A stretch of 25,637 nucleotides of DNA, taken from positions 1 through 25,637 of IMG/VR virus record IMGVR_UViG_2671181122_000005; one strand, written 5' to 3'. How positions within the stretch are numbered: the first letter of the stretch is position 1; every line of letters begins with the position of its first letter. This document shows positions 16,022 to 17,369 of the stretch, piece after piece. This DNA comes from a virus. Lineage: Duplodnaviria > Heunggongvirae > Uroviricota > Caudoviricetes. The position numbers and the translations under genes were made by a program. The notes beneath the pieces were generated by a model. The model was given only the letters and a program-made list of their open reading frames with translations, did no database searches and was not told the origin of the DNA.

Positions 16022-17046
16022 TGGGAAGACGAAGGAAAAATCCTGAACACGAAAAATTACCTCCAAATGTATACCCAAATAAATATAGTTATGTATGGAA
16101 ACCAACATCCAGAGAATCTGTAACACTAACCGCCATCAAGGATGGTTTAGCTGCTTTATGGAAAAAGTATGAGGAAACTGTAAATAATCGCGATCGTGCA
16201 ATGACATTCGGTCGCTTGTGGGAAAAATTCCTCGCCAGCGCCTGTTACAGTGACCTTAGCCCAAGAACACAAAAAGATTATCTGCAACATCAAAAAAAGT
16301 TGCTTGCCGTATTCGGTAAGGTACCAGCGGATTCCATAAAACCAGAACACATCCGTCGATACATGGACAAAAGAGGGGAACAGAGCAAAACGCAAGCCAA
16401 CCATGAAAAAAGCAGTATGTCCCGCGTTTACAGTTGGGGATATGAGCGAGGGTACGTGAAGGCTAACCCATGTGCAGGTGTAAGTAAATTCAAGGCCAAA
16501 AACCGCGAACGATATGTAACCGACAAAGAATACCAGGCAGTATTAAGCGTTGCACCTCTTCCTGTTTTTATCGCAATGGAAATTGCCTATCTGTGTGCAG
16601 CGAGGGTTTCCGATGTGTTATCGCTGAAATGGGAGCAGATTGGAAACGACGGGATCTTTATCCAGCAAGGGAAAACAGGGAAAAAACAGATAAAAGCATG
16701 GAGTCCACGATTACAGGCGGCGATCGAAAAAGCAAAACAGTTACCAACATCCGCCTATGTAATCAGCAATCAATACGGCAACCGATATATGTACAAAGGC
16801 TTTAACGAAATGTGGGTAGAAGCAAGAAATCGCGCAGGCAAAATTTCAGGTATTTTAACCGACTTCACCTTTCATGATCTGAAGGCGAAAGGAATTTCAG
16901 ACTATGAAGGAAGCAGTCGGGATAAGCAACTTTTCTCTGGTCACAAAACCGAAGGGCAAGTGCTAATCTATGACAGGAAGGTTAAAGTTTCACCAACACT
17001 TGATGTCCCGTTACCTGAAAATATTCCAAGACAATATTCCAAGTAA
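16021..17046 (+). CDS. Tyrosine integrase (lambda Int family, 341 aa)
   Basis: C-terminal catalytic region with HDLKAKG...SGHKTEGQVLIYDRK (R-H-R-Y pattern), adjacent to the att core. Confidence 0.9.
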   Translation: MGRRRKNPEHEKLPPNVYPNKYSYVWKPTSRESVTLTAIKDGLAALWKKYEETVNNRDRAMTFGRLWEKFLASACYSDLSPRTQKDYLQHQKKLLAVFGKVPADSIKPEHIRRYMDKRGEQSKTQANHEKSSMSRVYSWGYERGYVKANPCAGVSKFKAKNRERYVTDKEYQAVLSVAPLPVFIAMEIAYLCAARVSDVLSLKWEQIGNDGIFIQQGKTGKKQIKAWSPRLQAAIEKAKQLPTSAYVISNQYGNRYMYKGFNEMWVEARNRAGKISGILTDFTFHDLKAKGISDYEGSSRDKQLFSGHKTEGQVLIYDRKVKVSPTLDVPLPENIPRQYSK

Positions 17047-17053
17047 TTCCAAG
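17021..17053. repeat. Three tandem ATTCCAAG repeats at the int 3' end, candidate Int arm-type binding sites (a fourth copy lies at 17263-17272)
   Basis: atATTCCAAGacaatATTCCAAGtaATTCCAAG, with another ATATTCCAAG about 100 bp on the other side of the att core. Confidence 0.4.
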
Positions 17054-17098
17054 TGTGATTTTTGTCACTGACTTAATGATGTGTAAGTGATTGAATTT

Positions 17099-17160
17099 TG
17101 GCGGAGAGAGGGGGATTTGAACCCCCGGTGGAGTTGCCCCCACTCCGGTTTTCGAGACCG
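17099..17160 (-). other. att core: 3' portion (anticodon stem to CCA end) of a tRNA-Ser(CGA)-like gene, without the 5' half
   Basis: The reverse complement reads CGGTCTCGAAAACCGGAGTGGGGGCAACTCCACCGGGGGTTCAAATCCCCCTCTCTCCGCCA. The sequence upstream of the anticodon stem is not tRNA, so this is a partial copy, as in attP or a hybrid att. Confidence 0.75.
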
Positions 17161-17369
17161 ATGATACCGAATCGCAAAATCAAAAGGTTATAAATTTTTC
17201 TTGGAATAAATGTCTTAAAAACATACACGAAAAATCAATAAACTACGTTGAATTCAATAAGAATATTCCAAGCCTTCTTTGAGTTATTTTTGACCAGTTT
17301 GCTGTTTTTCTTTCTCATAAAATATTTCCTGATATCCCTTAACATTACTGATACTCAAGTAGTGAATTT

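Follow-up and report, generated by a model that had tools for sequence, protein, structure and literature searches.

INTRODUCTION

In the attP site of phage lambda, the arm beside int carries three tandem arm sites and the opposite arm carries two, and the same arrangement is found in the DNA analyzed here. Attachment cores formed by the 3′ ends of tRNA genes, arm sites of the lambda type, and tandem lysogeny are ordinary, known biology; all are textbook matters and are documented for serU. This gene is an established integration site, and prophages carrying nleF and nleH at serU have already been published. Salmonella phage ST64B also lands at serU (PMC10100743), as do the PAI-serU/TcpC islands of UPEC (PMC7545054). 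Tandem integration has been demonstrated experimentally for Sp10, which lies beside Rac and used the attR of that resident prophage as its attB (PMC2669165). We found no direct literature report of a tandem array at serU.

Here we analyze a stretch of 25,637 nucleotides (the window, to which all positions below refer) in which an integrase gene, a piece of tRNA sequence, and an effector-carrying arm follow one another. Taken as a whole, the analysis indicates that positions 17023 to 17280 are very likely a complete lambda-type P-O-P′ att site for a serU-specific integrase, most likely present as the seam between tandem prophages.

RESULTS

The att core is the 3′ part of serU

K-12 serU (NC_000913 2043468-2043557) served as the reference for alignment of the core. 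Positions 17099 to 17160 of the plus strand, TGGCGGAGAGAGGGGGATTTGAACCCCCGGTGGAGTTGCCCCCACTCCGGTTTTCGAGACCG, are the reverse complement of the 62 3′-terminal nucleotides of this tRNA-Ser(CGA) gene, so that the core homology itself reads on the minus strand; its extent was defined by alignment with K-12 serU and with attL/attR-type junctions. Read in the direction of the tRNA, the span opens with four of the five nucleotides that form the 5′ side of the anticodon stem; the loop and the 3′ side of the stem come next, followed by the long variable arm and the T arm and then by the 3′ acceptor strand with its CCA end. The anticodon loop corresponds to positions 17150 to 17156, and the anticodon is complementary to 17152 to 17154. 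Identity to the tRNA is lost at 17161, where A stands in place of G, and the bases beyond are unrelated to the D arm. The D arm and the 5′ acceptor strand are thus missing, and the 5′ 28 nt of serU are replaced by unrelated phage sequence. Partial similarity (TAAGTNATTGA) is also present 3′ of the tRNA end. A sequence-only reading of this DNA had proposed that the att core is a partial tRNA-Ser(CGA) 3′ end of about 62 nt whose 5′ half is absent, and the alignment agrees with it on both points.

A search for a complete cloverleaf was also made. ARAGORN found no tRNA gene in the whole window, and the serU match extends past the anticodon. Searches of the core against Rfam returned no tRNA match; the only hits, partial and subthreshold, covered the T arm and acceptor and were to tRNA-like models (tmRNA at 17099-17141, E value of 2.7e-5, and mascRNA). 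With an incomplete cloverleaf, no ARAGORN prediction, and only such Rfam matches, a functional tRNA gene at this position was rejected. We also set aside a plus-strand Rfam match to Plastid-psbl-rps4 (38.6 bits versus a gathering score of 68), which appears to be due to the tRNA-like sequence. The isolated core fragment folded no better than shuffled sequences (z score of −0.82), and a promoter and terminator scan of 16900 to 17900 gave nothing informative.

A serU integrase lies on one side of the core and an effector arm on the other

Upstream of the core, three genes on the plus strand follow one another: an exonuclease gene (13285-15759, 824 aa), an excisionase-like gene (15818-16021, 67 aa), and the integrase gene, int (16021-17046, 341 aa). 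The excisionase-like product contains DUF4224 (Pfam E value of 1.9e-15) and matches PHROG 1266, annotated as excisionase (E value of 3.1e-21). Its stop codon overlaps the start codon of int, and the gene is found immediately upstream of int in all related loci.

The integrase is a lambda-type tyrosine recombinase with Pfam Phage_integrase, Phage_int_M, and SAM-like domains. Its residues 1 to 313 align with full-length lambda Int (1z1b; E value of 6e-13), an alignment that includes the arm-binding N terminus, MGRRR..LPPN. Of the catalytic set, the protein has R195, K218, H285, H308, and Y317. Where lambda has the second Arg, R311, the alignment shows K288 in the motif HDLKAKG, and this Lys is invariant in the Ints of KpF5 and Chris1. 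Judged by its presence at serU in many genomes, the integrase family is evidently active; that its members catalyze with a Lys substituting for the second Arg is a more speculative reading. The exact Int protein was found in 1154 collection blocks, and all 10 of the places that lie on long contigs read int, serU, mtfA. Because serU and mtfA come after int in every one of these 10 places, we regard the protein as a bona fide serU integrase.

On the other side of the core, the right-hand arm has as its first intact cargo gene nleF (17874-18443, minus strand; Pfam NleF_casp_inhib), which is 99.4 to 99.5% identical to RefSeq copies of nleF. Beyond it, all on the minus strand, lie a truncated nleH, a tail fiber gene, lom, and J. 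The gene order therefore bears out the earlier description of int on one side and an effector/tail-fiber arm on the other, and with it the attP permutation, since int, core, and effector arm correspond to P-O-P′.

Five repeats with a conserved geometry flank the core

The word ATTCCAAG occurs in six exact copies in the 25.6 kb, against 1.31 expected, and none of 100 shuffles reached six. Five of these copies fall within 250 bp, at 17023, 17036, and 17046 on the plus strand, at 17200 on the minus strand, and at 17265 on the plus strand. Repeats had been noticed on both flanks of the core in the sequence-only reading; the ATTCCAAG copies are indeed there, three of them beside int and two toward nleF, and the full set coincides with the interval 17021 to 17272 marked in that reading. 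The three direct repeats (17023-17053, plus strand) are spaced by 13 and 10 and overlap the last codons and the stop codon of int. In the nleF-side arm, an inverted copy (17200-17207, minus strand) is kept in the ev099 and mEp332 arms and in that of prophage A of the FORC 064 genome, described below. A distal direct copy (17265-17272, plus strand), located by the exact-copy search, delimits the att site on the outside.

We compared this layout with those of two phages that carry the same core, counting the offset of each site from the T at the position of the tRNA 3′ terminus. The offsets in the window, with ATTCCAAG, are −76, −63, −53, +101 (inverted), and +166. Those of KpF5, in which the word is TTTTCTCA, are −77, −64, −54, +101 (inverted), and +164; Chris1, with the word ATACCAAS, has −77, −64, −53, +100 (inverted, with one mismatch), and +166. 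KpF5 carries 5 exact copies of TTTTCTCA in 3.7 kb, where 0.23 would be expected. The arrangement of three direct sites, one inverted site, and one further direct site is thus constant to within 2 bp in the window, KpF5, and Chris1, while the words differ. The repeat word also tracks the N-terminal domain of Int: the window and Chris1 have similar N domains and words that are 1 nt apart, and KpF5 is divergent in both. Since the five-site geometry is kept while the word changes in KpF5 and Chris1, we interpret the repeats as the probable arm-type sites of a heterobivalent Int, to which its N-terminal domain would bind.

The distal arm is shared with other serU prophages (FORC 064 prophage A, ev099, and mEp332) at about 88% identity up to the last repeat. 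This homology ends a few bases later, at about 17280, and we therefore place the outer boundary of the att site near that position. The ev099 and mEp332 loci were rejected as independent attP sites, as in each of them host flank, core, and distal arm meet in an attL-type joint, 2.4 kb from the phage's own int; they were used for arm conservation and allele linkage only.

Between the core and the inverted arm site, AATCAAAAGGTTA (17178-17190, plus strand) fits the pattern WATCAANNNNTTR and is a possible IHF site. The window contains two matches to this pattern versus 1.29 expected, a number that is not significant alone. Versions with one and two mismatches occur at the same offset (+78/+79) in Chris1 and KpF5. 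We treat the candidate site, and a possible use of IHF, as a lead only.

The variable-arm allele places the joint in the anticodon stem-loop

The core differs from K-12 serU at two positions, with G at 17130 (A in K-12) and C at 17141 (T in K-12). These positions are partners in the variable-arm stem, so the two differences form a compensatory pair (G/A at 17130 pairing with C/T at 17141). A compensatory change in the variable arm had been noted before from the letters alone, and it holds; the G..C form is an ordinary E. coli serU allele. It is present with 100% identity at unoccupied serU in at least 12 complete E. coli genomes. A phage-specific origin for G..C was accordingly rejected, since empty sites carry it too.

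The allele is linked to the flanking sequence. The int arm was accompanied by G..C in all 21 int-linked copies, comprising 12 int/serU boundaries and 9 internal junctions. An nleF arm of identical sequence carries A..T where it lies beside the yodB host flank (locus L023) or beside another element (L021 and L022). Within FORC 064, the yodB-side copy has A..T, and both the internal copy and the complete serU have G..C; in RM14723, G..C is found at the yodB side. Because G..C occurs both in empty sites and at the yodB side of RM14723, the argument from the allele is one of linkage and does not depend on a private phage marker. Because the variable-arm allele travels with the left flank, the recombination joint would lie between 17141 and 17161, in the anticodon stem-loop; the linkage is strong but not absolute.

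Other features of the core are consistent with this position. In the window as in KpF5 and Chris1, identity to the tRNA stops at one and the same nucleotide, shortly beyond the anticodon loop. The two strands of the anticodon stem form 5-bp inverted repeats (17145-17149 and 17157-17161) around a 7-nt loop (17150-17156), which fits core-type sites surrounding an overlap of 6 to 8 bp. We predict that 17145 to 17161 contains the core-type sites and the overlap region and that strand exchange takes place in this stem-loop, with exact cleavage positions that are themselves predicted. Such a position is expected for integrases whose inverted core sites are formed by the anticodon stem, in line with the classes of tRNA sublocation that Williams (2002) reportedly described. 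At the ends of related integrated elements, complete serU adjoins int in loci L001, L002, and L009 to L018, and the 62-nt fragment is found at the yodB side in L003, L023, and L031.

The same junction recurs in isolate genomes

The window is the entire contig CYEM01000025.1 (25,637 bp) of a draft isolate assembly, GCA_001283345.2, and this contig encodes the exact NleF protein; the core coordinates (17124-17148) coincide, and the contig is not a phage genome record. This contig passes through the core without a fork. Among 10 contexts of the exact NleF protein, 7 had the same int/core/nleF junction in other assemblies, 1 had nleF/core/zinT, and 2 had nleF/core/another element. An identical junction was found on contigs of at least 7 other assemblies from different projects; two of them, checked over 2.9 kb, match the window at 100%. 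For the exact NleF protein, 35 of 46 blocks hold only contigs under 5 kb; contigs this short fit a junction piece bounded by prophage repeats. A search for the exact junction pattern in species-representative genomes gave no matches, and a scan of viral contigs yielded only two short prophage pieces from isolate genomes, these IMG/VR pieces being 100% identical to the window over 2.9 kb.

The draft state of the source leaves room for an assembly artifact in which the 62-nt cores of the attL and attR of a single prophage were collapsed and the int arm was misjoined to the nleF arm. The core is shorter than many read lengths and could be below the k-mer size, and the source is a short-read draft. 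We consider such a misjoin very unlikely, however, as the same join is present in at least 8 assemblies of different projects and in one complete genome, and two contigs match the window perfectly over their 2.9 kb.

The complete genome is that of FORC 064 (NZ_CP022664.1), the only 1 of 5,426 complete E. coli genomes with the junction, which is 98.6% identical to that of the window over 2.5 kb and shows one difference from it in 17040 to 17300. Its chromosome reads yodB, core, defective prophage A, junction, defective prophage B, serU, mtfA, and the two prophages together fill the yodB-serU interval. Prophage A runs from NleG/DUF1076 effectors to early genes and int; prophage B runs from nleF and nleH to a frameshifted int. 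The left prophage of FORC 064 is 97.7% identical to that of the window over the aligned pieces, which make up about 66% of the query. Among the 5,426 complete genomes, the yodB-serU-mtfA interval is intact in 3,856, so that about 29% are occupied or rearranged at serU.

A prophage could also retain an intact attP if it had entered the chromosome away from serU, by homologous recombination with another prophage or by means of a second recombinase. Relatives of the left prophage do have a second, degenerate integrase gene in their early region, and lambdoid prophages often recombine (PMC7067040). Such an entry appears most improbable to us: no example was found, every long-contig context of the exact Int is at serU, and the FORC 064 junction lies inside a serU array.

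The unforked contig and the recurrence argue for a tandem seam

Locally, an internal seam between tandem prophages and a free attP are identical by construction and are indistinguishable by their sequence. The window could accordingly hold a true attP belonging to one phage genome that was present in the sequenced culture in excised, circular, or replicating form, produced by spontaneous induction or maintained as an episome. Such a phage exists, in that both arms of the window are the two ends of one 50-kb prophage in AMSHJX01; since a single prophage bears both arms as its ends, the seam is equivalent in sequence to the attP of an AMSHJX01-type phage. On partial excision in a lysogen, however, the integrated junctions would dominate and the assembly graph would fork at the core, whereas the 25.6-kb contig and at least 7 others run straight through. 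Repeated recovery from independent isolates fits an inherited chromosomal structure, the chromosomal version is proven by FORC 064, and the truncated nleH of the right arm and the pseudogenes in relatives of the left prophage are not suggestive of a vigorously replicating phage. We therefore judge an excised phage to be unlikely as the source.

We prefer another reading, which is likely: the junction in the window is an internal seam at which two different lambdoid prophages, lying in tandem at serU of an E. coli chromosome, meet. The rarity of the junction, present in one complete genome only, and the single AMSHJX01 prophage with both arms count against this reading. The tandem seam is favored because the window contig and the contigs of seven other assemblies cross the core unforked, because the structure recurs in independent isolates, because a closed genome has the junction in its chromosome, and because the right arm has a truncated nleH and several pseudogenes are found in relatives of the left prophage. 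For the source genome itself, a draft, we infer the tandem state from these relatives. A dilysogen of two identical phages was rejected: with identical arms, the assembly should branch at the core, which the contig crosses without interruption. Of the three origins left open by the sequence-only reading (a free or circular phage genome, a prophage integrated elsewhere, and the junction of two tandem prophages), the last is thus the one to which the isolate contig, the absence of a fork, the recurrence, and FORC 064 narrow the choice.

DISCUSSION

The arrangement suggests how such an array could form. Strand exchange would occur in the anticodon stem-loop, where the phage-borne copy would replace the 3′ part of serU, so that the tRNA would stay intact at the int end and a 62-nt remnant would remain at the other end. 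The N-terminal arm domain of Int is expected to bind the five ATTCCAAG repeats, of which three belong to the int arm and two to the opposite arm; these arm sites, with a possible bend by IHF, would serve to assemble the recombination complex. Directionality would be set by the 67-aa excisionase encoded upstream. In the proposed array, the left prophage would give the int arm and the right prophage the nleF/nleH/tail-fiber arm, the second phage having presumably integrated into the core copy supplied by the first.

A further step would be for the P-O-P′ seam to act as a working recombination substrate, at which Int and Xis excise either prophage or both and so reshuffle the int and early modules with the effector and tail modules. 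We regard this as a rather doubtful extension of the model. If it were true, exchange at three core copies would provide a dedicated route by which effectors of the nleF/nleH type spread between heterologous serU prophages.

What the analysis adds is modest, namely, the word and the geometry of the arm sites in this integrase family, together with a prophage boundary, and it has little significance beyond annotation. At that level, the window is recognized as a probable chromosomal prophage array and not a phage genome, and a line is drawn between two prophages that would be taken as one element by automated tools. The analysis also defines a full att site (about 17023 to 17280) and an arm word for a widespread serU integrase family, a definition that helps to delimit effector-carrying prophages in EPEC and STEC genomes.

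Among described systems, ST64B and the PAI-serU/TcpC islands are different elements that share the landing site. The serU prophages of O145:H28 are likewise of the lambdoid type, are integrated at the same site, and have an nleF/nleH arm that is 99.4 to 99.5% identical. In those genomes, however, the nleF arm abuts the yodB/zinT host flank in attL/attR-type joints, whereas that of the window abuts the integrase arm. FORC 064, which has the junction itself, differs in its right prophage, an 18-kb remnant without tail fiber, lom, or J, all of which the window retains. Klebsiella phage KpF5 and Citrobacter phage Chris1, with Ints 60% and 57% identical to that of the window, respectively, use the same serU core and are available as phage genome records, but they have other arm words (TTTTCTCA and ATACCAAS), the A..T allele of serU, and other cargo and hosts.

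For the mechanism, Sp10 beside Rac offers a parallel, as there a second phage entered a core copy supplied by the first, the route proposed here for making an internal P-O-P′ seam. The integrase and the site (the ydaO/Rac locus) are different, and the event was demonstrated by experiment there and is deduced from sequence here. Against the attP/Int/Xis system of lambda, the window differs in that its core is the 3′ segment of a tRNA gene, where the attB of lambda is the gal-bio intergenic region. Its arm word is ATTCCAAG and not the lambda consensus, the distances of the arm sites from the presumed overlap are different, and its Int has Lys at the second catalytic Arg and low overall protein identity. 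In organization, the two systems are alike: both have a heterobivalent tyrosine integrase with an N-terminal arm-binding domain, an att site of about 250 bp directly downstream of int, a small excisionase gene that overlaps the start of int, and the gene order J, cargo, attP, int, xis.

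Integrase and flanking genes

The serU-specific tyrosine integrase (Int; window positions 16021 to 17046, plus strand) was aligned with lambda Int. Lambda R311, the second catalytic Arg, belongs to the HxxR motif; its counterpart in Int is Lys (K288), and the motif reads HDLKAKG. The same motif is unchanged in the integrases of Klebsiella phage KpF5 and Citrobacter phage Chris1, which are 57 to 60% identical to Int. Because the motif is invariant in these relatives, Lys at 288 is, as judged from the alignments, a trait of the integrase family and not a lesion.

On the other side of the att site, nleH (18498 to 19410, minus strand) appears to be truncated: its longest open reading frame (ORF) encodes 234 amino acids (18629 to 19333) and ends ~130 nucleotides short of the expected end. 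Copies that are 99.4 to 99.5% identical are classed as frameshifted pseudogenes in RefSeq. Directly outside the att site, positions 17371 to 17459 (plus strand) hold a short N-terminal piece of a YkgJ-family cysteine-cluster gene. All related prophages keep this piece beside the core, where annotation treats it as a partial pseudogene with a frameshift.

In its early region, the left prophage encodes matches to both proteins of the Septu anti-phage defense system, PtuA (4718 to 6091, minus strand; E value of 1e-165) and the HNH nuclease PtuB (4096 to 4740, minus strand; E value of 1e-83), and the two genes of this pair (4096 to 6091) overlap each other. Few ORFs are found in window positions 6100 to 7100, a gap that separates the Septu ATPase from a DUF5677 gene. 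At the equivalent stretch, both the complete E. coli genome FORC 064 and the single 50-kb prophage of AMSHJX01 have an annotated second tyrosine integrase, which is frameshifted and is left over from an older mosaic join within the early region. The left prophage's early region (window positions 638 to 15807) is 99.7% identical to prophages of two human isolates (NZ_CP148579.1 and NZ_CP148374.1). This match ends exactly ahead of the excisionase-integrase module, which was apparently exchanged as a cassette.

The serU locus and its junctions

Among complete E. coli genomes, only 3,856 of 5,426 have an uninterrupted yodB-serU-mtfA interval; therefore, roughly 29% carry an insertion of some kind there. 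Empty chromosomal serU sites in E. coli carry either variable-arm allele, with an A-U or a G-C pair.

An attL-type joint also occurs within the genome records of phages ev099 (locus L008, 2930 to 3200), whose own int is ~2.4 kb away, and mEp332 (locus L007, 2240 to 2510). In both, the E. coli chromosomal yodB-side flank is followed by a serU 3′ fragment of the K-12 allele and then by the distal arm of a serU phage, in which both ATTCCAAG sites are present, and transposase and transcriptional-regulator genes adjoin the joint. These joints look like host DNA acquired via aberrant excision or recombination with a serU prophage.

At two further loci (L021, 2640 to 5900, and L022), an nleF arm and core of identical sequence adjoin neither host flank nor the window int but a different element, which encodes DUF6387, AlpA, and H-NS-like proteins. 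This junction suggests that serU can carry heterologous tandem arrays in which one member is a nonphage island, possibly related to PAI-serU.
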